Assembly (NCBI GenBank): GCA_964016885.1
Contig: OZ024741.1
Coordinates: 356,996,001 to 357,060,000, forward strand
Direction: 5' to 3'
DNA from: Eledone cirrhosa
Lineage: Eukaryota
Length of the DNA: 64,000 nt
Under the pieces are notes generated by a model that was given only the letters and a program-made list of their open reading frames with translations, did no database searches and was not told where the DNA came from. Below, piece after piece: positions 1 through 62,759 of the stretch. Position 1 is the first letter of the stretch; each line of letters starts with the position of its first letter. Both the position numbers and the translations under genes were made by a program.

Positions 1-3000
1 TCCTACTGTTACACAGTCTTCACCACTGCCATCAAGACTCCTACTTTTACACAGTCTTCACCACTGCCATCAAGACTCCTACTGTTACACAGTCTTCACC
101 ACTACCATCAAGAACCCTACTGTTACACAGTCTTCACCACTACCATCAAGACCCCTACTGTTACAAAGTCTTCACCACTACCATCAAGACTCATACTGTT
201 ACACAGTCTTCACCACTGCCATCAAGACCCCTACTGTTACACACTCTTCACCACTACCATCAAGACCCCTACTGTTACACAGTCTTCACCACTGCCATCA
301 AGACCCCTACTGTTAGACAGTCTTCACCACTACCATCAAGACTCCTACTGTTACACAGTCTTCACCATTACTATCAAGACTCCTACTATTACACAGTCTT
401 CACCACTACCATCAAGACCCCTACTGTTACACAGTCTTCACCATTACCATCAAGACCCCTACTGTTACACAGTCTTCACCATTACCATCAAGACCCCTAC
501 TGTTCCACAGTCTTCACCACTGCCATCAAGACCCCTACTGTTACACAGTCTTCACCACTACTATCAAGACCCCTACTGTTACACAGTCTTCACCACTGCC
601 ATCAATACCCCTACTGTTACACAGTCTTCACCACTACCATCAAGACCCCTACTGTTACACAGTCTTCACCACTACCATCAAGACCCCTACTGTTACACAG
701 TCTTCACCATTACCATCAAGACCCCTACTGTTACACAGTCTTCACCACTACCATCAATACCCCTACTGTTACACAGTCTTCACCACTGCCATCAAGACCC
801 CTACTGTTACACAGTCTTCACCACTGCCATCAAGACCCCTACTGTTACACAGTCTTCACCACTACCATCAAGACCCCTACTGTTACACAGTCTTCACCTC
901 TACCATCAAGACCCCTACTGTTACACAGTCTTCACCACTACCATCAAGACTCCTACTGTTACACACTCTTCACCACTACTATCAAGACCCCTACTGTTAC
1001 ACAGTCTTCACCACTGCCATCAAGACCCCTACTGTTACACAGTCTTCACCACTACCATCAAGACCCCTACTGTTACACAGTCTTGACCACTGCCATCAAG
1101 ACCCCTACTGTTACACAGTCTTCACCACTGCCATCAAGACCCTTACTGTTACAGTCTTCACCACTGCCATCAAGACCCCTACTGTTACAGTCTTCACCAC
1201 TACCATCAAGACTCCTACTGTTACACAGTCTTCACCATTACCATCAAGACCCCTACTGTTACACAGTCTTCACCACTACCATCAAGACCCCTACTGTTAC
1301 ACAGTCTTCACCACTGCCATCAAGACTCCTACTGTTACACAGTCTTCACCACTACCATCAAGACTGCTACTGTTACACAGTCTTCACCACTACCATCAAG
1401 ACTCCTACTGTTACACAGTCTTCACCACTACCATCAAGACCCCTACTGTTACACAGTCTTCACCATTACCATCAAGACCCCTACTGTTACACAGTCTTCA
1501 CCATTACCATCAAGACCCCTACTGTTACACAGTCTTCACCACTACCTTCAGGACCCCTACTGTTACACAGTCTTCACCACTACCATCAAGACCCCTACTG
1601 TTACACAGTCTTCACCACTACCATCAAGACTCCTACTGTTACACAGTCTTCACCACTACCATCAAGACCCCTACTGTTACACAGTCTTCACCACTACCAT
1701 CAAGACCCCTACTGTTACACAGTCTTCACCACTACCATCAAGACCCCTACTGTTACACAGTCTTCACCACTACCATCAAGACTCCTACTGTTACACAGTC
1801 TTCACCACTACCATCAAGACCCCTACTGTTACACAGTCTTCACCACTACCATCAAGACCCCTACTGTTACACAGTCTTCACCACTACCATCAAGACCCCT
1901 ACTGTTACACAGTCTTCACCACTACCATCAAGACTCCTACTGTTACACAGTCTTCACCACTGCCATCAAGACTCCTACTTTTACACAGTCTTCACCACTG
2001 CCATCAAGACTCCTACTGTTACACAGTCTTCACCACTACCATCAAGAACCCTACTGTTACACAGTCTTCACCACTACCATCAAGACCCCTACTGTTACAC
2101 AGTCTTCACCACTACCATCAAGACTCATACTGTTACACAGTCTTCACCACTGCCATCAAGACCCCTACTGTTACACACTCTTCACCACTACCATCAAGAC
2201 CCCTACTGTTACACAGTCTTCACCACTGCCATCAAGACCCCTACTGTTACACAGTCTTCACCACTACCATCAAGACCCCTACTGTTACACAGTCTTCACC
2301 ATTACCATCAAGACCCCTACTGTTACACAGTCTTCACCATTACCATCAAGACCCCTACTGTTACACAGTCTTCACCACTACCATCAGGACCCCTACTGTT
2401 ACACAGTCTTCACCACTACCATCAAGACCCCTACTGTTACACAGTCTTCAGAACTACCATCAAGACCCCTACTGTTACACAGTCTTCACCACTACCATCA
2501 AGACTCCTACTGTTACACAGTCTTCACCACTGCCATCAAGACTCCTACTTTTACACAGTCTTCACCACTGCCATCAAGACTCCTACTGTTACACAGTCTT
2601 CACCACTACCATCAAGAACCCTACTGTTACACAGTCTTCACCACTACCATCAAGACCCCTACTGTTACAAAGTCTTCACCACTACCATCAAGACTCATAC
2701 TGTTACACAGTCTTCACCACTGCCATCAAGACCCCTACTGTTACACACTCTTCACCACTACCATCAAGACCCCTACTGTTACAGTCTTCACCACTGCCAT
2801 CAAGACCCCTACTGTTAGACAGTCTTCACCACTACCATCAAGACTCCTACTGTTACACAGTCTTCACCATTACTATCAAGACTCCTACTATTACACAGTC
2901 TTCACCACTACCATCAAGACCCCTACTGTTACACAGTCTTCACCATTACCATCAAGACCCCTACTGTTACACAGTCTTCACCATTACCATCAAGACCCCT

Positions 3001-6000
3001 ACTGTTCCACAGTCTTCACCACTGCCATCAAGACCCCTACTGTTACACAGTCTTCACCACTGCCATCAAGACCCCTACTGTTACACAGTCTTCACCACTA
3101 CCATCAAGACCCCTACTGTTACAAAGTCTTCACCACTACCATCAAGACTCATACTGTTACACAGTCTTGACCACTGCCATCAAGACCCCTACTGTTACAC
3201 AGTCTTCACCACTGCCATCAAGACCCTTACTGTTACAGTCTTCACCACTGCCATCAAGACCCCTACTGTTACAGTCTTCACCACTACCATCAAGACTCCT
3301 ACTGTTACACAGTCTTCACCATTACCATCAAGACCCCTACTGTTACACAGTCTTCACCACTACCATCAAGACCCCTACTGTTACACAGTCTTCACCACTG
3401 CCATCAAGACTCCTACTGTTACACAGTCTTCACCACTACCATCAAGACTGCTACTGTTACACAGTCTTCACCACTACCATCAAGACTCCTACTGTTACAC
3501 AGTCTTCACCACTACCATCAAGACCCCTACTGTTACACAGTCTTCACCATTACCATCAAGACCCCTACTGTTACACAGTCTTCACCATTACCATCAAGAC
3601 CCCTACTGTTACACAGTCTTCACCACTACCTTCAGGACCCCTACTGTTACACAGTCTTCACCACTACCATCAAGACCCCTACTGTTACACAGTCTTCACC
3701 ACTACCATCAAGACTCCTACTGTTACACAGTCTTCACCACTACCATCAAGACCCCTACTGTTACACAGTCTTCACCACTACCATCAAGACCCCTACTGTT
3801 ACACAGTCTTCACCACTACCATCAAGACCCCTACTGTTACACAGTCTTCACCACTACCATCAAGACTCCTACTGTTACACAGTCTTCACCACTACCATCA
3901 AGACCCCTACTGTTACACAGTCTTCACCACTACCATCAAGACCCCTACTGTTACACAGTCTTCACCACTACCATCAAGACCCCTACTGTTACACAGTCTT
4001 CACCACTACCATCAAGACTCCTACTGTTACACAGTCTTCACCACTGCCATCAAGACTCCTACTTTTACACAGTCTTCACCACTGCCATCAAGACTCCTAC
4101 TGTTACACAGTCTTCACCACTACCATCAAGAACCCTACTGTTACACAGTCTTCACCACTACCATCAAGACCCCTACTGTTACACAGTCTTCACCACTACC
4201 ATCAAGACTCATACTGTTACACAGTCTTCACCACTGCCATCAAGACCCCTACTGTTACACACTCTTCACCACTACCATCAAGACCCCTACTGTTACACAG
4301 TCTTCACCACTGCCATCAAGACCCCTACTGTTACACAGTCTTCACCACTACCATCAAGACCCCTACTGTTACACAGTCTTCACCATTACCATCAAGACCC
4401 CTACTGTTACACAGTCTTCACCACTACCATCAGGACCCCTACTGTTACACAGTCTTCACCACTACCATCAAGACCCCTACTGTTACACAGTCTTCAGAAC
4501 TACCATCAAGACCCCTACTGTTACACAGTCTTCACCACTACCATCAAGACTCCTACTGTTACACAGTCTTCACCACTGCCATCAAGACTCCTACTTTTAC
4601 ACAGTCTTCACCACTGCCATCAAGACTCCTACTGTTACACAGTCTTCACCACTACCATCAAGAACCCTACTGTTACACAGTCTTCACCACTACCATCAAG
4701 ACCCCTACTGTTACAAAGTCTTCACCACTACCATCAAGACTCATACTGTTACACAGTCTTCACCACTGCCATCAAGACCCCTACTGTTACACACTCTTCA
4801 CCACTACCATCAAGACCCCTACTTTTACAGTCTTCACCACTGCCATCAAGACCCCTACTGTTAGACAGTCTTCACCACTACCATCAAGACTCCTACTGTT
4901 ACACAGTCTTCACCATTACTATCAAGACTCCTACTATTACACAGTCTTCACCACTACCATCAAGACCCCTACTGTTACACAGTCTTCACCATTACCATCA
5001 AGACCCCTACTGTTACACAGTCTTCACCATTACCATCAAGACCCCTACTGTTCCACAGTCTTCACCACTGCCATCAAGACCCCTACTGTTACACAGTCTT
5101 CACCACTGCCATCAAGACCCCTACTGTTACACAGTCTTCACCACTACCATCAAGACCCCTACTGTTACACAGTCTTCACCACTGCCATCAAGACCCCTAC
5201 TGTTACACAGTCTTCACCACTGCCATCAAGACCCCTACTGTTACACAGTCTTCACCACTGCCATCAAGACCCCTACTGTTACACAGTCTTCACCACTGCC
5301 ATCAAGACCCCTACTGTTACACAGTCTTCACCACTACCATCAAGACCCCTACTGTTACACAGTCTTCACCACTGCCATCAATACCCCTACTGTTACACAG
5401 TCTTCACCACTACCATCAAGACCCCTACTGTTACACAGTCTTCACCACTACCATCAAGACCCCTACTGTTACACAGTCTTCACCATTACCATCAAGACCC
5501 CTACTGTTACACAGTCTTCACCACTACCATCAATACCCCTACTGTTACACAGTCTTCACCACTGCCATCAAGACCCCTACTGTTACACAGTCTTCACCAC
5601 TGCCATCAAGACCCCTACTGTTACACAGTCTTCACCACTACCATCAAGACCCCTACTGTTACACAGTCTTCACCTCTACCATCAAGACCCCTACTGTTAC
5701 ACAGTCTTCACCACTACCATCAAGACTCCTACTGTTACACAGTCTTCACCACTACCATCAAGACTCCTACTGTTACACACTCTTCACCACTACTATCAAG
5801 ACCCCTACTGTTACACAGTCTTCACCACTGCCATCAAGACCCCTACTGTTACACAGTCTTCACCACTACCATCAAGACCCCTACTGTTACACAGTCTTGA
5901 CCACTGCCATCAAGACCCCTACTGTTACACAGTCTTCACCACTGCCATCAAGACCCTTACTGTTACAGTCTTCACCACTGCCATCAAGACCCCTACTGTT

Positions 6001-9000
6001 ACAGTCTTCACCACTACCATCAAGACTCCTACTGTTACACAGTCTTCACCATTACCATCAAGACCCCTACTGTTACACAGTCTTCACCACTACCATCAAG
6101 ACCCCTACTGTTACACAGTCTTCACCACTACCATCAAGACCCCTACTGTTACACAGTCTTGACCACTGCCATCAAGACCCCTACTGTTACACAGTCTTCA
6201 CCACTGCCATCAAGACCCTTACTGTTACAGTCTTCACCACTGCCATCAAGACCCCTACTGTTACAGTCTTCACCACTACCATCAAGACTCCTACTGTTAC
6301 ACAGTCTTCACCATTACCATCAAGACCCCTACTGTTACACAGTCTTCACCACTACCATCAGGACCCCTACTGTTACACAGTCTTCACCACTGCCATCAAG
6401 ACTCCTACTGTTACACAGTCTTCACCACTACCATCAAGACTGCTACTGTTACACAGTCTTCACCACTACCATCAAGACTCCTACTGTTACACAGTCTTCA
6501 CCACTACCATCAAGACCCCTACTGTTACACAGTCTTCACCACTACCATCAAGACCCCTACTGTTACCCAGTCTTCACCACTACCATCAAGACCCCTACTG
6601 TTACCCAGTCTTCACCACTACCATCAAGACCCCTACTTTTACACAGTTTTCACCACTACCATCAAGACTCCTACTGTTACACAGTCTTCACCACTACCAT
6701 CAAGACCCCTACTGTTACACAGTCTTCACCACTACCATCAAGACTCCTACTGTTACACAGTCTTCACCACTGCCATCAAGACTCCTACTGTTACACAGTC
6801 TTCACCACTACCATCAAGACTCCTACTGTTACACAGTCTTCACCACTACCATCAAGACCCCTACTGTTACACAGTCTTCCCCACTACCATCAAGACCCCT
6901 ACTGTTACACAGTCTTCACCACTACCATCAAGACTGCTACTGTTACACAGTCTTCACCATTACCATCAAGACTCCTACTGTTACACAGTCTTCACCACTA
7001 CCATCAAGACCCCTACTGTTACACAGTCTTCACCACTGCCATCAAGACTCCTACTGTTACACAGTCTTCACCACTACCATCAAGACCCCTACTGTTACAC
7101 AGTCTTCACCACTACCATCAAGACCCCTACTGTTACACAGTCTTCACCATTACCATCAAGACCCCTACTGTTACACAGTCTTCACCACTGCCATCAAGAC
7201 TCCTACTGTTACACAGTCTTCACCACTACCATCAAGACCCCTACTGTTACACAGTCTTCACCACTACCATCAAGACCCCTACTGTTACACAGTCTTCACC
7301 ATTACCATCAAGACCCCTACTGTTACACAGTCTTCACCACTACCATCAAGACCCCTACTGTTACACAGTCTTCACCATTACCATCAAGACTCCTACTGTT
7401 ACACAGTCTTCACCACTAACATCAAGACCCCTACTGTTACACAGTCTTCACCACTGCCATCAAGACTCCTACTGTTACACAGTCTTCACCTCTACCATCA
7501 AGACCCCTACTGTTACACAGTCTTCACCACTACCATCAAGACTCCTACTGTTACACAGTCTTCACCACTACCATCATGACTCCTACTGTTACACAGTCTT
7601 CACCACTACCATCAAGACCCCTACTGTTACACAGTCTTCACCACTACCATCAAGACCCCTACTGTTACACAGTCTTCACCATTACCATCAAGACTCCTAC
7701 TGTTACACAGTCTTCACCATTACCATCAAGACCCCTACTGTTACACATTCTTCACCACTGCCATCAAGACCCCTACTGTTACACAGTCTTCACCACTACC
7801 ATCAAGACTCCTACTGTTACACAGTCTTCACCGCTACCATCAAGACTCCTACTGTTACACAGTCTTCACCGCTACCATCAAGACTCCTACTGTTACACAG
7901 TCTTCACCACTACCATCAAGACTCCTACTGTTACACAGTCTTCACCACTACCATCAAGACTCCTACTGTTACACAGTCTTCACCCCTAACATCAAGACTC
8001 CTACTGTTCCACAGTCTTCACCACTGCCATCAAGACTCCTACTGTTACACAGTCTTCACCACTACCATCAAGACTCCTACTGTTACACAGTCTTCACCAC
8101 TACCATCAAGACTCCTACTGTTACACAGTCTTCACCATTACCATCAAGACTCCTACTATTACACAGTCTTCACCACTACCATCAAGACCCCTACTGTTAC
8201 ACAGTCTTCACCACTACCATCAAGACTCCTACTGTTACACAGTCTTCGCCACTACCATCAAGACCCCTACTGTTACACAGTCTTCACCATTACCATCAAG
8301 ACCCCTACTGTTCCACAGTCTTCACCACTGCCATCAAGACCCCTACTGTTACACAGTCTTCACCACTACTATCAAGACCCCTACTGTTACACAGTCTTCA
8401 CCACTGCCATCAATACCCCTACTGTTACACAGTCTTCACCACTGCCATCAAGACCCCTACTGTTACACAGTCTTCACCACTGCCATCAAGACCCCTACTG
8501 TTACACAGTCTTCACCACTACCATCAAGACCCCTACTGTTACACAGTCTTCACCACTACCATCAAGACTCCTACTGTTACACACTCTTCACCACTACCAT
8601 CAAGACCCCTACTGTTACACAGTCTTCACCACTGCCATCAAGACCCCTACTGTTACACAGTCTTCACCACTACCGTCAAGACCCCTACTGTTACACAGTC
8701 TTCACCACTGCCATCAAGACCCCTACTGTTACACAGTCTTCACCACTGCCATCAAGACCCTTACTGTTACAGTCTTCACCACTACCATCAAGACCCCTAC
8801 TGTTCCACAGTCTTCACCACTGCACTGCCATCAAGACCCTTACTGTAACAGTCTTCACCACTGCCATCAAGATCCCTACTGTTACACAGTCTTCACCACT
8901 ACCATCAAGACCCCTACTGTTCCACAGTCTTCACCACTGCACTGCTATCAAGACCCTTACTGTAACAGTCTTCACCACTGCCATCAAGACCCCTACTGTT

Positions 9001-10048
9001 ACACAGTCTTCACCACTACCATCAAGACCCCTACTGTTACACAGTCTTCACCATTACCATCAAGACCCCTACTGTTACACAGTCTTTACCACTACCATCA
9101 AGACCCCTATTGTTCCACAGTCTTCACCACTGCTATCAAGACTGCTACTGTTACACAGTCTTCACCACTGCCATCAAGACCCCTACTGTTACACAGTCTT
9201 CACCACTACCATCAAGACCCCTACTGTTACATAGTCTTCACCACTGCCATCAAGACTCCTACTGTTACACAGTCTTCACCACTACCATCAAGACCCCTAC
9301 TGTTACACAGTCTTTACCACTACCATCAAGACCCCTATTGTTCCACAGTCTTCACCACTGCTATCAAGACTGCTACTGTTACACAGTCTTCACCACTACC
9401 ATCAAGACCCCTACTGTTACACAGTCTTTACCACTACCATCAAGACCCCTACTGTTACACAGTCTTCACCACTGCCATCAAGACTCCTACTGTTACACAG
9501 TCTTCACCACTACTGTTACAGTCTTCACAACTACCATCAAGACCCCTACTGTTACACAGTCTTCACCACTGCCATCAAGACCCCTACTGTTACACAGTCT
9601 TCACCATTACCATCAAGACTCCTACTGTTACACAGTCTTTACCACTACCATCAAGACCCCTACTGTTCCACAGTCTTCACCATTACCATCAAGACCCCTA
9701 CTGTTACACAGTCTTCACCACTGCCATCAAGACTCCTACTGTTACACAGTCTTCACCACTGCCATCAAGACCCCTACTGTTACACAGTCGTCTCCACTAC
9801 CATCAAGACCCCTACTGTTCCACAGTCTTCACCACTGCCATCAAGACCCCTACTGTTACACAGTCTTCACCACTACCATCAAGACCCCTACTGTTACACA
9901 GTCTTCACCACTACCATCAAGACCCCTACTGTTACACAGTCTTCACCACTGCCATCAAGACCCCTACTGTTACACAGTCTTCACCACTGCCATCAAGACC
10001 CCTACTGTTACACAGTCTTCACCACTACCATCAAGACCCCTACTGTTA
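1..10048 (+). repeat. 38-bp tandem satellite array, forward arm (continues beyond window start)
   Basis: Monomer ACACAGTCTTCACCACTACCATCAAGACCCCTACTGTT repeated head-to-tail with point variants and occasional 2-bp (AC) deletions. Confidence 0.98.
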
Positions 10049-11877
10049 CACAGTAAGGGTCTTCATGGCAGTTGTGAAGACTGTATAACCGTAGGGGTCT
10101 TGATGGCAGTGGTGAAGACTGTGTAACAGTAGGGGTCTTGATGGCAGTGGTGAAGACTGTGTAACAGTAGGGGTCTTGATGGTAGTGGTGAAGACTGTAA
10201 CAGTAAGGGTCTCGATGGTAGTGGTGAAGACTGTAACAGTAAGGGTCTCGATGGTAGTGGTGAAGACTGTAACAGTAAGGGTCTTGATGGCAGTGGTGAA
10301 GACTGTGTAACAGTAGGGGTCTTGATGGCAGTGGTGAAGACTGTGTAACAGTAGGTGTCTTGATGGCAGTGGTGAAGACTGTGTAACAGTAGGGGTCTTG
10401 ATGGTAGTGGTGAAGACTGTAACAGTAAGGGTCTCGATGGTAGTGGTGAAGACTGTAACAGTAAGGGTCTCGATGGTAGTGGTGAAGACTGTAACAGTAA
10501 CGGTCTTGATGGCAGTGGTGAAGACTGTGTAACAGTAGGGGTCTTGATGGTAGTGGTGAAGACTGTGTAACAGTAAGGGTCTCGATGGTAGTGGGAAAGA
10601 CTGTAACAGTAAGGGTCTTGATGGCAGTGGTGAAGACTGTGTAACAGTAGGGGTCTTGATGGTAGTGGTGAAGACTGTAACAGTAAGGGTCTTGATGGTA
10701 GTGGTGAAGACTGTGTAACAGTAGGGGTCTTGATGGTAGTGGTGAAGACTGTGGAACAGTAGGGGTCTTGATGGCAGTGGTGAAGACTGTGGAACAGTAG
10801 GGGTCTTGATGGTAGTGGTGAAGACTGTGGAACAGTAGGGGTCTTGATGGTAGTGGTGAAGACTGTGGAACAGTAGGGGTCTCGATGGTAGTGGTGAAGA
10901 CTGTGTAACAGTAGGAGTCTTGATGGTAGTGGTGAAGACTGTGTAAAAGTAGGAGTCTTGATGGCAGTGGTGAAGACTGTGTAACAGTAGGGGTCTTGAT
11001 GGCAGTGGTGAAGACTGTGTAACAGTAGCAGTCTTGATAGCAGTGGTGAAGACTGTGGAACAATAGGGGTCTTGATGGTAGTGGTAAAGACTGTGTAACA
11101 GTAGGGGTCTTGATGGTAGTGGTGAAGACTGTGTAACAGTAGGGATCTTGATGGCAGTGGTGAAGACTGTTACAGTAAGGGTCTTGATGGCAGTGCAGTG
11201 GTGAAGACTGTTACAGTAAGGGTCTTGATGGCAGTGCAGTGGTGAAGACTGTGGAACAGTAGGGGTCTTGATGGTAGTGGTGAAGACTGTAACAGTAAGG
11301 GTCTTGATGGCAGTGGTGAAGACTGTGTAACAGTAGGGGTCTTGATGGTAGTGGTGAAGACTGTGTAACAGTAGGGGTCTTGATGGCAGTGGTGAAGACT
11401 GTGTAACAGTAGGGGTCTTGATGGTAGTGGTGAAGACTGTGTAACAGTAGGGGTCTTGATGGTAGTGGAGACGACTGTGTAACAGTAGGGGTCTTGATGG
11501 TAGTGGTGAAGACTGTGTAACAGTAGGAGTCTTGATGGTAGTGGTGAAGACTGTGTAACAGTAGGGGTCTTGATGGTAGTGGTGAAGACTGTGTAACAGT
11601 AGGGGTCTTGATGGCAGTGGTGAAGCCTGTGTAACAGTAAGGGTCTCGATGGTAGTGGGAAAGACTGTAACAGTAAGGGTCTTGATGGCAGTGGTGAAGA
11701 CTGTGTAACAGTAGGGGTCTTGATGGTAGTGGTGAAGACTGTGGAACAGTAGGGGTCTCAATGGTAGTAGTGAAGACTGTGTAACAGTAGGGGTCTTGAT
11801 GGTAGTGGTGAAGACTGTGTAACAGTAGGGGTCTTGATGGCAGTGGTGAAGACTGTGTAACAGTAGGGGTCTTGATA
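10049..11877 (-). repeat. 38-bp satellite array, inverted arm
   Basis: Reverse complement of the same monomer (AACAGTAGGGGTCTTGATGGTAGTGGTGAAGACTGTGT) from the junction at 10041-10055 to about 11877. Confidence 0.97.
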
Positions 11878-12130
11878 CTATAGGCATGTGGTTAGAATGT
11901 CTCAGGAAAGAATCACTGGACAGATTTTACAGGCAAAACCAAATGGCAAGAGACCCAGGGGTAGACCCCAAGCAGAATGTTTGGATAACATCCCTGAACT
12001 TGGCTGGTCTTGCTTGAGGATCCAGCCAGATCAGTTAGAGACAGTTGCTTCTGACATGACCTGCTGGGAAGAGTGTTTGAGGACTCTGCCCCATGACCCT
12101 CTCAGGAATAAGTGGGTGAAGAAGAAAAAG
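11878..12130 (+). mobile_element. RTE-clade LINE 3' fragment
   Basis: Translates to HVVRMSQERITGQILQAKPNGKRPRGRP, a typical RTE ORF C-terminus, followed by a GAA-rich tail; related copy at 45760-45945. Confidence 0.75.
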
Positions 12131-28610: not shown

Positions 28611-29371
28611 TATGTACTATACATACACCTTTGATGAGCACTGTACACAATAATTTCACCTGAGCACTGTACACAATAATTTCATTATTATTATTTATAT
28701 TCACCTTATGAACCTCTCCCAACACTCCACCATAAACTACTAAGCACTTTCCCTCTCTTCAAGGCCACTTCCATGGCTCAAACCCCTGCTCTCCCTCTCT
28801 GCTTCTCCCTTGACAAGCATAATGTAGTGACTATTACTACCCATCAAAGAATGTCACTTTTGCCATGTTCTCACCTCTTCCCCTGTTCAATCCCATTACT
28901 GCCTGGCTAATGAGACAATAATTACCCTAGTTTGGCACCACATTAAAATGCACCTAGCCCTGTCTGTACAGTGGTAATGTGGATGCCATGATTAAATGCA
29001 CCCAGTACATGGTGTAACCTAGTTGACATTAGAAAGGGCATCCAACCAGAGAAACCATGCCAAAATGAAATGTATGAGCAGGATGTGGCAACCCATCCAA
29101 CATGTAAAGCAGTAAAGCAGTGGTAATGATAGTAATTATAACATACAAGCATACACACGTATATATACATACATATATATATATATATATCGTTCGGTAG
29201 AGTAAAACTTTAGGCGGTATCTGGCTGCTCTTTCTAGCAGCCAGCCTACCTGCCACCTGGCCACCATTCACAACCTTCTACTTTGACCACTAGCCATGTG
29301 ATGATTCTTAGCCATTTTTTAATTCATTTCTAGCGGTGATCACTGTAGAAATTTTAGTCCAAACCTGAGGG

Positions 29372-29457
29372 GTCTCTTGATAAGCTCTAAGCCTCATGGA
29401 TAATACCAAAATAGGACATATCCACAAAGTACGAGCGAAACTATCGATAGTCGGGAC
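29372..29457 (+). ncRNA. type I hammerhead ribozyme motif (intact core, U3-A8 variant)
   Basis: Stem I GTCTC/GGGAC; core TTGATAA; stem II GCTC/GAGC with a long insert containing TGGATA/TATCCA; GAAA; palindromic stem III ACTATCGATAGT; GTC cleavage triplet at 29450-29452. Confidence 0.8.
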
Positions 29458-29767
29458 TAGAGGAATTTTGGTAAAGTTTATATGCATTTTTTCTTCTAAC
29501 TTATATTTTAGACTTAGCTCCGTTTAATTGATTATTTGTCTAGTTAATTTCTACGGGCTAAAAGGAAAGACTAGATAAATTTTATCTGACTGTTCCTTGC
29601 GGAAAATAGTCTGTATCGTTTGTCTATTATTTCTTCATAGTTACATTTTAAACTTATAGCCCCGTTTAAAGGATTATTTATCTAGTTGATTTCTATGGAC
29701 TAGATTGAGGAAAGACTGGATATATTTTATCTAATAATTCATCAAACTTGCAATTTTATATATATAT

Positions 29768-29900
29768 ATCATCATCATCATCATCATTTTACGTCCGCTT
29801 TTCCCTGCTTGCAAGGGTGGGACGGGAACTGATTCTGGCTTTATTTCTACAGCTGGATGCCCTTCCTAACACCAACCTCATTTACAGTGAGTGCTGTGTG
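29768..29900 (-). mobile_element. RTE-tail short element
   Basis: (CAT)n, then ACGTCCGCTTTTCC...GCTGGATGCCCTTCCTAACACCAACC. Confidence 0.65.
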
Positions 29901-48669: not shown

Positions 48670-48738
<69 letters not shown>

Positions 48739-48895
48739 TTGGAGCTCTGAAATAGCAATATATATATATGGATGTATATATAATGTATTTTGCAATACAC
48801 TTTATGCTTAATTAAAAGCATTTTGAAGACCGTAAGCTATTGTTTTAAAGTAGTGACAAATTCACTCACTTTGATCTCAGCAAACAGGGGAGATA

Positions 48896-48939
48896 AGCCG
48901 ACAAGTCTTGTTTCGCTTTGGTTGAAGCTTATCAAGGCC
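48896..48939 (-). ncRNA. type I hammerhead ribozyme motif (inverted copy)
   Basis: Exact reverse complement of 49032-49075. Confidence 0.78.
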
Positions 48940-49031
48940 AACTACCCCACCTGCATAATCAGCTCCTGATTATTTACTAGATTTCTATAAGAATATAACA
49001 TCAATGATCTCAGTAAACAGGTGGGGTAGTT

Positions 49032-49075
49032 GGCCTTGATAAGCTTCAACCAAAGCGAAACAAGACTTGTCGGCT
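49032..49075 (+). ncRNA. type I hammerhead ribozyme motif (U3-A8 variant)
   Basis: Stem I GGCC/GGCT; TTGATAA; stem II GCTT-CAACCA-AAGC; GAAA; stem III ACAAG-A-CTTGT; GTC triplet at 49069-49071. Confidence 0.8.
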
Positions 49076-49599
49076 TATCTCCCCTGTTTGCTGAGATCAA
49101 AGTGAGTGAATTTGTCACTACTTTAAAACAATAGCTTACGGTCTTCAAAATGCTTTTAATTAAGCATAAAGTGTATTGCAAAATACATTATATATACATC
49201 CATATATATATTGCTATTTCAGAGCTCCAATTCTAATTTTTAATTTCTGCCTGACCAACAACCGCTCTGCATAATCAGCTCCTGATTAATTACTAGATTT
49301 CTATAAGAATATAACATCAATGATCTCAGTAAACAGGTGGGGTAGTTGGCCTTGATAAGCTTCAACCTGTATGAGCAAGGCATGGTCAACCGACCAGACA
49401 CTGCCCACAACAGGACGACCCGTCTAACCCATGCTAGCATGGAAGAACGGACATAAACGGTGATGATGGTGATACACACACATATACACATATATACACA
49501 CACACATATATATATATATAAACTATAAACATATACAAACACATCTACAGAAATACACATATATACAAAATACATAAACACATACACATATATATATAT

Positions 49600-53748: not shown

Positions 53749-55842
53749 ATCATCATCATCATCATCATCATCAACGTTTAACGTCCGTGTTCCACGCTTG
53801 CATGGGTTTGGACGGGGGTAGTCCCACTTGAGGCAAGAGTGATTGTCTTGCTCGCATAGGACTGTCTGGCAGGTTTTCTACAGTTGGATGCCCTTCCTAA
53901 CACCAACCACATTTACAGTGTGGGTCTGGGAGGTTTTTACCGTGTTGCCTACACGGCCACATTACAGCATGGACTGTGTGTTTTTTTGTCGTGACACCTA
54001 CACGATCTCATTTGTTTCGGCCTCGATGGCGCGGCACCAACATAACTTTACATAGAACGGGGTGGTGTGGATGGGGTGGGGGTGGTGGTGGTGGGACGGG
54101 GTGTATTTTGTTAGAGATGCCTACTGGCTGGAGTAGGTTTTACTATATATTTAGGTAAGGCGGGTCTTCTCTGTTACTGAGTACCGCCAAAGGTCTCGGT
54201 CCAGTGACATTGTCTTGGAGAGGTGTAAGTATGTGATGTCGGAGTTTATCAGCTCGTCCCAGGTTTTTCTAGGTCTGCCTATTCCGTGACTACCGTCTAT
54301 CTTTATTGCCCTGCACTTTGTTATACAGCTATCGACTTTCATGCGCATCACGTGTCCATACCAACGTAGCCTTCTCTCAAGTAAACAACATCTGATCCCT
54401 CTTATCTCTAATTTTTTCCTTAGTTCGTTTATGCTTTGCCGTTCACGTATATTACTGTTACACATCCAGCGGAGCATGCAAGCTTCGTTCCTCTCTAGTC
54501 TGCATATATCCTCTGCACACAATGCCCAGGTCTCACTGCCATGCAGCATTGCTGTTCGTATGCAGGCATCGTACAACCTGCCTTTCATTTTTAGGGAGAA
54601 CCCTTTAGCAGCTAATAGTGGTATAAGCTCTCTGAACTTTTTCCAACCAGTTCTGACTCTAGCTACAGTACTTTCAGAGCACCCTCCCCCACTGCTGATT
54701 TTATCGCCCAGGTAACGGAAGCTGTCCACTATTTCTATAGAACCCTCTGCGCAATTGAAAGAGCTAGTATTTTGTGGGCACTTGCTGCTACTTATTGCAC
54801 CAGAGCACCGGCCACATGTAAAATCTATGTTCTTAGTTAGCTTACCTGTGATCCCACTACATCTTTTATGCACCCATACTTTGCATTTAGGACATAAAAT
54901 GGAGTTTCTACCTACGCCTTTCCTACACACCGAGCACGACCATTTCCCAGAAGGGACCGCCGCCTTGTTTTCTTTCCTACAAACTAGTACTTTGGTCTTA
55001 GCCAGGTTAATTTTAAGTCCTTTTGACTCTAGGCCGTGCTTCCATGTTTGGAATTTCTTCTCTAGCTCGGCCATTGATTCCGCTATGAGTGTCAGGTCGT
55101 CTGCGTATAGGAGTTCCCATGGGCAGCCTGTCTTGAACTCCTCTGTTATAGCCTGAAGGGCAATAATAAATAGTAGTGGGCTGAGAACAGAGTCCTGATG
55201 GACGCCAACTTTTACGCTAAACTCTTCACTATATTCGTTGTTAATTCTAACCTTGCTGACTGTTTCTTTATACATGGCTTGTATAGCCCTCACAAGCCAT
55301 TCGTCAACGCCTAGTTTTCTAAGAGCCCACCAGATAATGGAGCGGGGGACTCTGTCGAAGGCTTTCTCCAAGTCGACAAAAGCTAAGTAGAGGGGTTTAC
55401 CTTTAGCTAGGTACTTCTCCTGTAGTTGTCGTACTATGAAAAGAGCGTCTGTGGTACTTTTGCCTGACACAAACCCGAACTGCATTTCATCTAGGTCAAT
55501 TCTTTCTCTGATTAGTTGCGCTATTACTTTTTCCGTGACCTTCATGACCTGGTCGATTAATTTAATGCCTCTATAGTTACTCCTATCTAGGGCATCTCCT
55601 TTACCCTTATAACAGTTAATGATGATGCTGCTATGCCAGTCCTTCGGAACAACCCCATTCTGTACGACTTGGTTAACTATGCGGGTGACCATGGTGTGTC
55701 CCACCGTGCCAGATGCCTTCAGCATCTCAGCAACTATTTCCGAAGGCCCAGCCGCCTTACCCGTCTTCATATCCTTGATTGCCTTACTTATTATACTCCC
55801 CTCGACTAACACTGCTGGTCCCTCTATTGGGTCGATATGGGG

Positions 55843-55847
<5 letters not shown>
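53749..55847 (-). mobile_element. 5'-truncated RTE-clade LINE with an uninterrupted RT reading frame
   Basis: GKAAGP, NYRGIKL, QFGF, DLEKAFD, LYADD, C4HC3 finger and GRPRKTW motifs; 3' UTR and (GAT)n tail. Confidence 0.95.
54151..55847 (-). CDS. RTE reverse transcriptase, 5'-truncated, no native start
   Basis: Open frame of about 565 codons containing the RT motifs; the first ~21 aa of the track ORF come from a (TA)n tract and the adjacent element. Confidence 0.7.
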
Positions 55848-55882
<35 letters not shown>

Positions 55883-55884
<2 letters not shown>

Positions 55885-56135
55885 AAGGCGGGTAAAATTC
55901 CCGAGATCCATGGACGAGTTCTCTCCAGCGGTCTCTGTCCCTCATTATCGCTGCCATATCCTGCCTCTCCAACAGACCAGTGTCTGTCCTTAGGGCATCA
56001 ACATATGTTAACCTTGGTCTTCCTCTTCTAGTGTGTCCATGTAGGGGCTCCCAAAGGAGCACTGAGTGCAATGTCAACTCTGGATGTCGGTGAGCATGTC
56101 CAGCCAACCTCAGTCTTCTCTGTGTCACTTTTGAC
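55883..56135 (-). mobile_element. RTE LINE 3' fragment
   Basis: RRLRLAGHAHRHPE..VLLWEP.HG..RRGRPRLTYVDAL..DTGL. Confidence 0.8.
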
Positions 56136-57325: not shown

Positions 57326-59300
57326 ATGACTGAGCCCCCTCCCGCAGCGATATGTCGGCTGTCGTGCGACAACGACGTAGAAGTTGAGAGGAGCGCTACA
57401 GCGAAATTAACACACATTGATAACACAAACACCACCACAAACAAGGTAAACAAAGACACCAATGATACCAATAAGAACTCTAATTTTGAAAAAAATGACA
57501 GTAACAGCGACAACGAAAATACAGATAACAAAAAAAAAAAATAACAAATACAACAACAATATCAACACCACTAACATGAAAACAAATAGCGACAACACCA
57601 ACAGCAACAATACCAACTGCACCGAGAACAACGGTGGCAACAAAGACAACAATGATAACAGCGACAGTGCTAACAACAACACCAACAAGAACAACGTCAA
57701 CAACACCCCAACAAAAACAAGACCACTTTCGCTTCGGCAGCAGCAAAATAGAGGCCATGCTTCAACATGGACCTCTCAAACAAAGATGAAAAGTTGGCCC
57801 AGGCATGGGAGCTCATCAAGCAAGAGCAAACTTGGGCCAACTTAACTGTCCTGGTAGAAGTTATTGAGGCAGTGGAGCGCAAAACGGTGCATTATAGATG
57901 CATCTCAGCACAAACCAAAAGGGCAGCGTTAATTCCACAAGAAGATGTCGAAGTCGCACTGAGGTACATCAGAAAAGACACCCAGTACATAGAGAGGGGC
58001 AGACAGTACGGCACCATTTCGGTGTTGTTCCAGTCAGAAGCCCTCGCTATGAAACACGCTATGACTCCTTGCAAAACCAGCAAGGTCATAATGTACCCCT
58101 CCCTCATGGGAAAAAGAACGGCCCATCTCCGCATTCCCAGAATCCCACCAGGACTTGACATGTGGTGGCTTCTGGGATGTGTGATTGTGGAGGGGACGGA
58201 TACAGTCCCTATAGAAGTGACCAGAACGGCCAGAGAGGACTGGTCCGGGGTTGACCTGGAGATCCTTCTCCAGATTAGACCCAAGAATGTGAAGACAATC
58301 CCAGACCACATCCGCCTTCAGAATGGGACGGTCATTCACATTATGACCGAAGGCAAAAGGCCGCAGTGTTTTGTTTGTGGGGAAAAAACCCATTTGCGAG
58401 CCTTCTGCCCTCAACTGCTGAAAGAGGCAAGGGGTCGAAAGGCTCCACTGCTGCCGACGCCGGGGCGAGGACCACAACCAATACCTGCACCGGCAAAACC
58501 ACCAACAACAACACCAATAGAAAGACCACCACCAACATTGACCACCCAGGGGGGAAACGAGGAAAGCTGTCAAATTCCCCCTTCCCCCAAAATACACACA
58601 CCAATAAAACCTTAAACATACATACAGACATACTTACAGACACAGACCCCTCATCTACCAGTAGTGAAAATGAGGGAAATCCCAAATCCCCCAAAATACA
58701 AAAAAGGAAACACAAAAAGAAAAAAAAACTCAACAAAGCACAAAAGCACCCACAATAAAAAACGCAGACACCACCCACGCAAACATCTCTCCAATAGCAC
58801 CAACATCAACACCACCATCACCATCACCAGAATCCCCCAAACGCAAACAACCGAAACAGACGCAAGAACAAATATACAGACAAACATCTGAAACCACAGA
58901 CACCGCACTCACAACAAACACAGATACAACAGAAACAACACCACCAAAACCATCACCACCACAGCCACGCAAACAAATAAAATCACACCAACAAAACATA
59001 CAAAACTTCGTGCTCGTCAGGAGGGCCAACAAGGAACTGATGGCCCTCGTAGCACGAAGTGAAAATATACAAAAAGAGGGGGGAATTTTTAAATCGAGCA
59101 CATTTCGTGTGCCAGAAGATTTGGTTCTGGTGCGAATGTCGCTCGACATATTCAAAGAAATACGAGACAGCTTTCCTCAGGACGTGGGAACCCCGAACGT
59201 AAAACCCACTTTAAGACTTTTAAAGGGGTTCCCAAAAGAAACCCCACTAACTATGGAGGTCGAACAACCCGACCTTCACAAGAGCCCGGAAGGTAAGTAA
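57326..59300 (+). pseudogene. Tx1-like ORF1 (gag-like), disrupted
   Basis: Asn/Thr-rich N-terminus, FASAAAK motif, core 57767-58615 with CFVCGEKTHLRAFC, low-complexity linker and C-terminal segment 59010-59300; stops and frameshifts between the pieces. Confidence 0.7.
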
Positions 59301-59331
59301 ACCTTCCTCTCTCTCTGTTTAACCTGCCAAC

Positions 59332-62300
59332 ATGGCCATATTAAGAGTAAGATGTTTAAATGTTCGAGGCCTGGGATCGTCCTGGAAGCAGGGTCACCTG
59401 CTCAACGACCTCAGGTCTATAGAAATGGATGTAATTGCAGTCAGCGAGACCAGGATTTCTGACATGCGCACACTAGCCCCCATTTTCGACGACTATCAGA
59501 TCTTTGCATCTGTCTGTTAGCCGGCTGGGAATGGGAGGCGGGGTGGCAGTGCTGTTTAGGAAAGGCCTGGATCTCGAGGTAAGGTCGATCTTCCGGGACC
59601 CGGATGGTAAGTTGGTGGTCCTGGACGTGAACAATAATGAAGGTGGTGCCTTTAGACTGGTGGCCGTCTATGCTCCTACTGGGGAAGGACGGCCGGACTT
59701 CTTTAGATGCCTGGAAGCCTTTCTGGGTACGTCTCGCCCTTTACTGTTAGCGGGGGACTGGAATGGCATCTTAGACGCACACTGGGACTGTGTGGGAGTA
59801 TCCGATAGGAGCGGGGGGTGCAAAAGCCTCAAGAACCTGATCAGCCAGTTCCAACTGTCTGACAGGTACCGACTAGATTTCCCTAATGCGCCAGTGTGGA
59901 CCTGGGCTAACCGCATAGGGTCATCTAGATCGTATATAGACAGGATATTCATTAGGAAAATAGACAGAAATAGTGTAAGCTGTCCATGTTTTGAAACGGT
60001 CGCCTATTCAGATCACAAGTTTGTGATCTGTATGGTCGACCTAGATAAGACGCGTAGGTTAGGACCTGGTTACTGGAAGCTAAACATATCATTTCCGGCA
60101 CGTAAGGCTTACAGGGACCAGGTCAACAATTTAGTTAAGAAAAAGTTTACAGGGGAAGTCGTCAACAATAGATGGTGGGGGGCTCTCAAAAGAGAGATTA
60201 GAGTAATGTCGATAGAGTTTAGCAAAGAAGTAGCATTAGAGATAAATAGAAAGGAGGGGGAGTTGGTAGATAAGTTAGACGAGGCTATTGGTAGTGGCAT
60301 TGCAACTGATGTGCTAGCGGCGAGAATGGCATTAGACCATTTCTTCAATGCGAAACACGAAGGTTGCATTGTCAGAGCTAAGGCGCGTGCTCTGAGAAAC
60401 GAGGGAACCAAAGCTGTTCGATGGGCCCGCGTGGCAGAGGCGCAGCGTGGTAATAAAACCACGATTTGGTCTTTGACGGACCGAGACGGGCACGAGCTGA
60501 GCGATTCCAAGAAGATGTGTGAGGCCTTTCGCCAACATTTTGCTCGGTTGTTCAGGGGAAGTGGCGGGTCAGAGATGGTGGTGGACTTCAGTCCCTACCT
60601 CAATGGCTTGCCGCAACTCTCGACGGCTGGCGCTGGGCACTGCGAAAGGCCAATTACTTCAGCTGAGATTCAGGATGCCCTTGTCGGCTGCATGAGGCGC
60701 AAGTCACCCGGTTTGGATGGTCTGCCCTACGAGCTTTACGTAAATATGCCAGACTTGTTCTCCAATCTCCCCGAAGCCCTCTACTGCAACTGGCAGCAAA
60801 ACGGGAGTATTCCCAGTTCTGTGAGCCAGGGCGTAGTGACGTTGATAAGGAAAGACAAGAACAAGAGGGACACATTAGACAATTTCAGGCCCATAACTCT
60901 GCTCAACACAGAGTTTAAGATTTTGGCCAGGATGTTAGCGAAGAGGTTGGCGCTTGTCGTCGGGGATTTGGTTGGGGAGGTGCAAACTTGCGCAATCCCA
61001 ACCAGGTCCATACACGACAACCTCCACCTAATACGATACATCATAGAGAGGGTAGGGTGTAAACCTGGCTTCGGTGGGGCTCTGATCAATTTAGATCAAT
61101 CGAAAGCATTCGATAGGGTCGACCATCGGTACCTGGAGGCTGTCCTCAAGGCGGCTGGCTTCGGCCCCGTCTTCAGAAGCTGAATCGCTGCAATGCACAG
61201 CGGCACCTGCTCGATGGTCAAAATTAATGGCCACCTCTCGGAACCGTTTCAGGTCTCCCGATCGGTCCGTCAAGGGTGCCCTCTCTCCTCCCTTCTGTAC
61301 GCATTGACTCTCGAGCCTTTACTGCGGAAGCTGGAGCTGTTGCAGGGCATCCCGCTCGAATCGGGACGCGGAAAGGCCGTGTCGGCTTATGCGGACGACA
61401 TCACCGTGATGGTGTTGGACACCTCAGAAATCGAGGTGGTCGGCAACTTATTGGAGGAATATGAAAGGTTGACGGGAGCAAAACTTAACCCGGAAAAGTC
61501 AGTAGGCTTGCAACTCGGCACCTGGAGAGGCAAGTCCATGCCGTCCAACAGCATCGTTAGGCGCTGGACGGACGGACTGGTAAAGTTGCTAGGGGTTTGG
61601 TTCGGGCCAGACCTCCAGGTGGATAAGAATTGGGACGAGGTGACGGGCAGGGTAGTCAGTCTCACCCAGAAATGGGCTGGGATGAAGCTATCACTGAAAG
61701 GTCGGGCGGAGGTGGCGAACGCGTACATCGCGTCCGTCATCTACTACCGTCTGACTGTCGTCCCTTGCCCCCGTTCGCACCTCACCATCTTGGAGCGGCT
61801 CCTCTTCAAATTCTTGTGGAGGGGTCAGGTTCCGCTGGTGAGGCGGTCCATCTGCTGCCAGCACCCTCTACGTGGAGGGCTGGGCATGCCGTGACTAATG
61901 ATGCGCAGGCACGCGCTGAGGCTGCGGCATCTCCAGATATTCTGCCTAAACGGTGAACAGGTGTGGTCGCCGGTTGTCAGACGGGCTTTTCCGCAGCTCG
62001 TTTCTTTGACTGAGCTGCAGTCCTGGGTCAAGAAGAGACCGAGACTGGGTGACTGGCATCTGGAATGTTGCCAGGCACTCACTGCGCTCTACCAGGCGGG
62101 CAATGCGGTCAGTGGAACTTCCACTCTCGAGTTCTATAGAGGATTAGTGGTGGGCAAGTGCGGCGAGGCACTCGGAGAGGCTCTGGGAGTCAACGAAGTC
62201 GAACTAACCAGTCTGTACCGGAGGACTTTCGAGCCGGGGACGATGGATAATTTCCAAAAATCCCTCGCTTGGCATTGCTACCGGGGGGGCACTGCCGGTT

Positions 62301-62759
62301 CGAGATAAACTCTACAGGCACGGAAGTGCTGTCAGACGGACCTGCCCTATATGCGCGCAGAGCGACGAAACCGTTCTGCACGCACTCGTCCAGTGTCCGT
62401 GCATTACTGACTTGTGGAGTTTTGTTGAACAGCTGTTGTCGCGTGTAGAACGGATCTGGCTCTCGGCCGAGTCCATAGTGAAAATCGACCCGCCGCCTTC
62501 TTTTGGCCAGGAAGGGCAGGCAATTTTCCACTGTCTTATGGCAGTAGCGAAAGAGCTTGTATGGTGGACGAGGTTGAAAGGACTGAAGACAGACACTTTT
62601 CTCTTCGGCCAATCCCTCATCAACTTTTTCAAGTTTCACTTGGAAAGGAAGGTTAGGGTGGAGAGAGAAGTGCTGCCCCCCAGTACATTTGTTGAAAGGT
62701 GGGTGAATGTGGCGAGAATGGCCCGTGTGAGTGGGCCTACTCTGGTCATGCGGCTGTAG
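59332..62759 (+). pseudogene. Tx1-like ORF2 (APE endonuclease, reverse transcriptase, zinc knuckle), disrupted
   Basis: LNVRGL, AVYAP, GDWN, YIDRIF, SDH, KSPGLDG, NFRPITLLN, DQSKAFD, RQGCPLS, YADD and CPICAQSDETVLHALVQC; frameshifts near 59515 and 62285; TGA at 61181 and 61892. Confidence 0.92.

Follow-up and report, generated by a model that had tools for sequence, protein, structure and literature searches.

How does a ribozyme motif come to lie in a short non-coding stretch of the Eledone cirrhosa genome, between TA-rich tracts, and did the motif serve whatever carried it there? The window considered here is a 64,000-nt stretch of contig OZ024741.1 (assembly GCA_964016885.1, forward-strand positions 356,996,001 to 357,060,000), and positions are counted from its first nucleotide. 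A first-pass annotation of the window, made from the letters alone, placed a hammerhead ribozyme within 29190–29757. The reading favored here, to which we assign a probability of roughly 70%, is that this stretch is a 5′-clipped copy of a 719-nt, protein-free hammerhead repeat, likely a retrozyme-like passenger that was copied from RNA into (TA)n by Penelope-type enzymes.

The window is rich in other repeats. Positions 1–11876 are occupied by a 38-bp satellite with more than 300 copies and a strand inversion near 10040. A 596-aa reverse transcriptase (RT) frame lies on the minus strand at 54151–55941 and, from its motifs, we take it to be RTE-like; the plus strand at 57752–62759 presumably holds a broken L1/Tx1-like element, again judged by motifs. 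A second U3-A8 hammerhead family, with a unit of ~317 nt set in (TA)n, is found at 48735–49370. This copy consists of one inverted arm and ~1.4 direct units, with cores at 48935 (minus strand) and 49036 (plus strand), and its hammerheads have a short loop II and a long stem I.

A type I hammerhead with a variant core

There is a type I hammerhead at 29371–29458. Every part named in the first-pass annotation (stem I, the TTGATAA core, stem II with the helix inside its insert, the palindrome and the GUC triplet) is found where it was placed (Table 1). The motif has the features that the hammerhead core rule describes: a Watson-Crick pair between positions 3 and 8, G12 A13 A14, an A15.1-U16.1 pair, and an NUH cleavage site. 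Its three helices, with stem I open, give a type I topology that is backed by covariation among families A–D, described below. When 40 block-wise dinucleotide shuffles of positions 12001–64000 (52 kb, both strands) were scanned with the descriptor, no equally good match was returned, and looser matches arose at a rate of 0.025 per shuffle. Rfam gave no match across the window at its gathering threshold, which is a library threshold rather than a defining property of hammerheads; the long stem II insert and the variant core are the likely cause. An outward extension of stem I is predicted for the window copy, whereas representatives of families B–D are predicted to adopt other folds.

The core is unusual in having U3 and A8. 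The first-pass annotation regarded C3U and G8A as compensatory changes, and this interpretation holds: U3-A8 has been published as a natural core variant that is active in vitro (Perreault et al. 2011, PMC3088659), and the two positions covary here, being T-A in some families and C-G in others. The variant has also been described in Schistosoma mansoni Penelope-like elements (Cervera and de la Pena 2014, PMC4209133). Given these two publications, U3-A8 is not new. Judging by its sequence, the hammerhead of the 719-nt repeat likely cuts its own RNA.

Table 1. Positions of the repeat copy, its hammerhead and its flanks in the window
Feature	Position	Strand	Remarks
Upstream TA-rich tract	29160..29190	.	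Exact 5′ junction obscured by TA sequence similar to that of the missing spacer
5′-clipped monomer copy, family A	29192..29755	+	564 of 719 nt; 3′ end at the more frequent of the two fixed end sites
Stem I outward extension	29349..29479	+	Predicted 16 bp (29349–66 with 29461–79); prediction only
Type I hammerhead motif, U3-A8 variant	29371..29458	+	Descriptor scan, copy alignment
Stem I, 5′ strand	29371..29376	+	6 bp (two G-U); partner strand 29453–29458
Core positions 3–9, TTGATAA	29377..29383	+	U3 = 29377, A8 = 29382
Stem II	29384..29436	+	4 bp, around 45-nt insert (29388–29432)
Inner helix of stem II insert	29397–402 / 29419–424	+	TGGATA / TATCCA; predicted fold
G12 A13 A14 A15.1 (GAAA)	29437..29440	+	
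Stem III	29440..29451	+	Perfect 12-nt palindrome; predicted pairing between two copies
GUC triplet	29450..29452	+	Predicted cut 3′ of C29452, by established hammerhead chemistry
Subrepeat 1	29486..29587	+	11-bp hairpin 29534–44 / 29570–80
Subrepeat 2	29626..29732	+	Hairpin 29676–86 / 29715–25
Downstream (TA)n tract at insertion site	29756..29769	.	Followed by (CAT)n

A clipped copy of a 719-nt monomer

A search of the 3.0-Gb genome with the unit gave 3,156 dispersed candidates, the best 40 of which are 90%–96% identical over their full length. Thirty loci fetched from these best 40 represent family A. Because only the best 40 DNA candidates were scored in each search, the samples lean toward young, long copies. 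The flanks of the fetched copies reveal that the repeat is arranged head to tail with a period of 719 nt, with one type I hammerhead per unit and a GC content below 45%. Indeed, one locus (L010) contains a natural monomer, from cut site to cut site, of 719 nt and 33.8% GC. Its longest ATG frame is 59 aa and its longest stop-to-stop frame is 71 aa, making it protein-free. The copy in the window lacks the 155-nt spacer of the monomer and corresponds to the last 564 nt. Hence, what was first described as a ~565-bp non-coding unit between (TA)n tracts does lack an ORF and does have TA flanks, but it is a clipped piece of the monomer rather than a whole element. Having one ribozyme and 0.8 of a unit, this copy likely cannot make a full monomer again.

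Other copies extend further, with 16 of 30 insertions being longer than one monomer. Among the best junction-spanning loci (the best 40 of 4,185 candidates were scored), arrays reach at most about 1.6 units, and none of 30 has a direct tandem in which both cores are intact; two ribozyme positions are covered in L234 and in L248, but these loci are decayed. Folded as a circle, the L010 monomer has a predicted energy of −171.4 kcal/mol, compared with −140.7 ± 7.2 in 40 shuffles (z −4.3), although its minus strand folds nearly as well (−169.4) and the internal repeat described below adds to the low energy. The family is present in three sequencing runs of unknown kind, seen as contigs and hence blind to transcript starts, strand and circles.

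One contig carries three family A copies (L004, L011 and L017) whose core is broken by the same change at position 9, which implies at least one duplication of a defective variant. Upstream of the ribozyme, 29260–29305 contains CCAAT-like and CACGTG-like motifs that recur in the sister families and that we take to be a possible internal promoter. At 29297, C is found in 28 of 29 other copies and T in the window copy. A sigma-70 promoter scan, using a model inapplicable to an animal, was at chance level.

Selection on the ribozyme

Has the ribozyme been maintained for its activity? Sister families B–E were found by BLAST likeness to the unit and not by a ribozyme search, and mean identity between families is 45%–73%. 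In unanchored counts, the 3-8 pair is T-A in 29 of 30 family A copies and 23 of 25 family B copies, and C-G in all 20 copies of family C and all 20 of family D; both arms of the single family E locus are also C-G. A tree of 22 sequences (five from each of families A–D and two from E) places the U3-A8/C3-G8 switch on a single branch (support 100). Midpoint rooting puts the root on that very branch, giving the switch no direction. A C3/A8 intermediate subfamily was considered and rejected, C3 being private to one of the 25 family B copies.

Aligning genomic copies for stem covariation, a check proposed in the first-pass annotation, uncovered two-sided changes at 10 pair positions in families A–D: the 3-8 pair, three positions in stem I, two in stem II and four in the palindrome. 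Within the palindrome, A-T and G-C alternate even inside single families (18 and 7 in family A, 8 and 11 in family B). Three family-level positions are unpaired, with A-G and A-C in family C and U-U in family D, the last being a tolerated hammerhead variant (PMC3088659). The families have retained every catalytic position as well as the 3-8 pair. The excess of core identity over background is modest: 62.5% of columns are shared, which gives 0.015 for nine in nine.

Individual copies behave differently, with genomic decay being even (5.4% in the core versus 5.4%–6.2% in the flanks) and the full core retained in 18 of 30 family A copies. Since the fold is kept across families while copies decay at the flank rate, selection acted on the propagating source lineages. 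The earlier proposal of a ribozyme under selection for activity thus applies to those lineages, through their two-sided changes, and not to single copies; similarly, the expectation that copies would conserve the core is borne out between families, and within family A by only part of the copies. The window copy happens to be intact.

Folding alone and in pairs

The first-pass annotation allowed stem III to fold either as a monomer or as a dimer. For the single-stranded window copy, pairing of the core with the palindrome is predicted to be preferred over the hammerhead (−19.8 versus −18.4 kcal/mol, with an ensemble cost of 1.8). The core is paired to the palindrome with a probability of 0.82 (rank 10 of 256 palindromes), and the stem III hairpin has a probability of only ~0.1. 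Median hairpin probabilities in families A–D are 0.09, 0.29, 0.00 and 0.02 (14, 14, 19 and 12 intact-pattern copies, respectively). Two copies, by contrast, cofold as a double hammerhead with a minimum of −53.1 kcal/mol, compared with 2 × −19.8. The hammerhead is predicted to act as a dimer rather than as a monomer, so that the choice leans toward the dimeric option, the monomeric one not being the predicted lowest fold. This is a prediction because the folding models include neither tertiary contacts nor concentration, and because any palindrome favors the dimer. Sequestration of the core by the palindrome was also considered as a conserved monomer off-switch and was rejected because it is not general; its median probabilities are 0.29, 0.07, 0.44 and 0.75 in families A–D.

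A duplicated hairpin

The 3′ part of the unit contains an internal repeat, first described as ~130 bp long and imperfect (29506–29591 versus ~29648–29733). The repeat is present, but those coordinates capture it only in part: the two subrepeats in Table 1 are 80% identical over 107 columns and have a period of 140 nt. Each can form a hairpin, in which 90.9% of 383 cells are paired, versus 26%–46% in slid controls; the count covers 35 distinct rows from families A–D, whose relatedness inflates a shuffle test, with the structure drawn from the window copy. Nine of the 11 hairpin pairs vary on one side, mostly via G-U, and two vary on both sides. This pattern suggests that the hairpin is a conserved RNA structure of the plus strand. 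A role in RT binding would be a guess. Neither a SECIS element nor a second ribozyme was seen in the subrepeat by eye, and Rfam gave no match to it. A search for a motif common to the subrepeat or unit and the 317-nt family or three Penelope 3′ regions gave a best E of 0.17, which is not significant. In one family B copy (L113, G000:C9:39067584-39068375), the 140-nt subrepeat is expanded to ~5 tandem units.

Insertion ends and the nature of the template

How were the copies inserted? A script that removed repeats reduced 119 loci to 75 distinct insertions. Of these, 53 stop at monomer position 719, 12 stop near position 150 and 10 stop elsewhere. Each favored site is an AATT-TATATA-like motif inside the monomer; of the 65 insertions that end at one or the other, 56 run into (TA)4 or more. 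An inverted arm is present at the 5′ junction in 25 of the 75 insertions, and 18 of these arms end at the same two sites. The 5′ ends are scattered. They were assessed at 42 places chosen only by their 3′ part (from 59 loci, 16 being dropped as repeats and one as a second match within a single insertion): 35 copies cross the predicted cut site and seven start downstream of it, with none of the 42 5′ ends lying within 6 nt of it. Partial tandems, an inverted 5′-truncated arm and a microsatellite target, all found here, are the marks of Penelope mobilization.

The polarity of the ends, fixed at 3′, scattered at 5′ and directed to (TA)n, largely excludes a satellite-like or other DNA-level repeat that spread with no RNA step and carries a fossil hammerhead. 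Such a repeat would fit with copies decaying at the flank rate and with the lack of an editing scar (there is no A-to-G strand excess as expected of edited RNA, with 53 changes versus 77 T-to-C, p 0.54). It fits poorly with the lack of long arrays and with the G-U-tolerant pairing of the subrepeat hairpin, which is as expected of the plus strand as RNA. We consider this explanation very improbable.

If the repeat was copied from RNA, what was the template? A cut linear monomer primed at 719 would yield only 303 nt; hence, the template was a religated circle, an uncut multimer, or one that was crossed by template jumps, and the choice between these is one that we infer. As no 5′ end lies at the cut site, the genome offers no direct sign that cutting happens. 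Penelope machinery could in principle have used uncut linear tandem transcripts or template jumps and no circle, with the hammerhead trimming read-through RNA or promoting dimerization. Consistent with this, copies run through the cut site instead of starting at it, misfolding is predicted for the monomer ribozyme, 8 of 9 Xenopus retrozyme dimers were uncleaved in vitro (bioRxiv 10.64898/2026.07.22.740005), and a young Neptune-like family has spread with C at position 13 of its hammerhead-like motif in 30 of 30 copies. Nonetheless, a route with no circle seems unlikely, given that the catalytic positions and the 3-8 pair have been kept across families of 45%–73% identity, and that retrozymes of mussel, coral and axolotl cut and accumulate as circles (PMC7229834).

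Penelope-type elements as possible partners

Which enzymes might have done the copying? A search of the genome for GIY-YIG domains gave 10,597 candidates, of which the best 150 were scored. One of them, L051, has a 938-aa frame with both RT (28.0 bits, against a Pfam cut-off of 29.6; E 2e-6) and GIY-YIG domains. The element (2300–7600, minus strand) is apparently complete, its open frame being flanked by two identical U3-A8 hammerheads 4,979 nt apart, and it has relatives at 95%–98% protein identity. It carries a Cys linker of the CX2-5CxxC kind, which has been tied to Neptune elements and to microsatellite targeting (PMC8557442); we call it Neptune-like on the strength of this motif, not of a tree. 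The downstream copy of L051 stops at an internal TA motif followed by (TA)n. Four further ends, in L052, L060 and L062, stop likewise in (TA)n, and L056 does not. No sequence common to the 719-nt unit and the L051 or L071 family was detected.

Two other Penelope-type groups were observed. The 3′ region of the L071 Penelope family, sampled as L075–L104, marks a young Neptune-like family whose copies are 96%–98% identical; C replaces A13 of its hammerhead-like motif in each of the 30 copies and its stem I is T/A-only, so that, from sequence, the ribozyme is likely crippled in a family that still spread. The element at L061:3326-5574 (plus strand) is Penelope-like but belongs to another clade (26% to L051) and has two frames; a C3-G8 minimal hammerhead-like motif, identified by eye, lies downstream, and the element also ends in (TA)n. 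L061, L069 and L070 were each considered as partners of the 719-nt unit and rejected as separate neighbors in TA tracts.

The similarity to Penelope-like elements raises the possibility that the unit is simply the terminal pseudo-LTR of an autonomous one, and that the dispersed copies are its 5′-truncated leftovers. Its end style, inverted arms and hammerhead match those of autonomous Penelope-like elements both in this genome and in PMC8557442, and the share of the family examined is small (the best 40 of 3,156 candidates). However, what lies upstream in long copies is the preceding monomer and neither a 3′ UTR nor an ORF, and the unit has no RT and GIY-YIG frame between pseudo-LTRs, the arrangement by which an autonomous Penelope-like element is recognized. 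There is no consistent ORF neighbor, with Penelope protein matches within 1.5 kb of only 4 of 95 and 2 of 89 loci (overlapping sets), at differing positions and to two unrelated protein queries. The L071 locus, a candidate for a Penelope ORF joined to a homologous unit, proved to be a nested insertion: of 30 copies of its 3′ region, only the query itself adjoins the unit. An origin as a pseudo-LTR is therefore improbable.

A proposed route of spread

For the favored reading, a retrozyme-like passenger of Penelope-type enzymes, spread could proceed as follows. A source locus longer than one unit would be transcribed. The 12-nt palindromes of two hammerheads would pair, and cleavage after GUC would free a 719-nt monomer that would be ligated to a circle. 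A Neptune-like GIY-YIG endonuclease would open a (TA)n tract, and the freed TA end would pair with one of the internal TA motifs of the RNA. Finally, RT would read through the religated cut site, in some cases starting from each side of the break, leaving partial tandems and inverted arms. A model of circles and more-than-unit copying has been proposed previously (PMC4209133).

A more ambitious version is that these sequences represent a persistent lineage of circular RNAs of 720 nt whose hammerhead is dimer-gated. The circle would be protected by the core-palindrome fold, and the presence of two copies would switch cutting on; Neptune RTs would recognize the duplicated 140-nt hairpin and copy around the circle, starting from each side of a (TA)n break; and the five families would have rewired the 3-8 pair and all three stems while remaining functional. 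This version is speculative, and we consider it doubtful.

Relation to known elements and implications

Non-LTR retrozymes, their circles and their cleavage as dimers have been described (Cervera and de la Pena 2020, PMC7229834), and a Penelope origin of retrozymes has been argued (Li, Clavereau and Pollet 2026, bioRxiv 10.64898/2026.07.22.740005); the comparisons made here are with the main texts of the papers cited. The unit resembles metazoan non-LTR retrozymes in being a non-coding, head-to-tail repeat with GC below 45% and one type I hammerhead per unit, in having a palindromic stem III suited to dimer cleavage, and in co-occurring with Penelope-like elements. At 719 nt it is larger than the invertebrate retrozymes of PMC7229834 (170–400 nt), although it is inside the range of 51–972 nt given by Li et al. 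It differs from classic retrozyme arrays in that its copies are scattered as partial tandems, no longer than about 1.6 units, and can carry inverted arms. Its stem II has a structured 45-nt insert instead of a short loop, and its 12-nt palindrome gives a 4-bp stem instead of 1–2 bp. The internal 140-nt duplicated hairpin is likewise unlike retrozymes, and the unit is known here from genome sequence alone. Li et al. regard a retrozyme as active when there is a tandem of at least two units with complete hammerheads; as none of the 30 best junction-spanning loci here has two intact cores, and as circular RNA is a prediction, this repeat is classified as retrozyme-like.

There are similar points of likeness to and difference from Penelope-like elements. 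The hammerheads in the pseudo-LTRs of PMC4209133 are also type I, with a U3-A8 core and a palindromic stem III, and are mostly single dispersed motifs. In contrast to those minimal hammerheads, the one described here has a complete stem I of 6 bp and a long stem III and lacks an extra base after position 9, and the unit has no linked RT-endonuclease frame. Partial tandems, an inverted 5′ arm and microsatellite targeting are shared with Neptune-type EN+ Penelope-like elements (Craig et al. 2021, PMC8557442), which, unlike the 719-nt unit, encode protein. The compensatory pair is the same as in the variants of PMC3088659; here, the switch occurred inside one homologous lineage, with C3-G8 sister families as comparators.

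What does this repeat add? No published report of a retrozyme in this animal group, or of this family, was found in main texts drawn mostly from outside the subscription literature. Since concept, core variant and dimer mode were all in print already, the gain is incremental. First, the repeat adds a large, dispersed retrozyme-like lineage that bears the marks of Penelope insertion. Second, it lends genome-sequence support to the idea that animal retrozymes are linked to Penelope-like elements. Third, the matched U3-A8 and C3-G8 sister ribozymes, with palindromes of 8 and 12 nt, are natural pairs for cleavage-rate tests of the core variant and of dimer gating.
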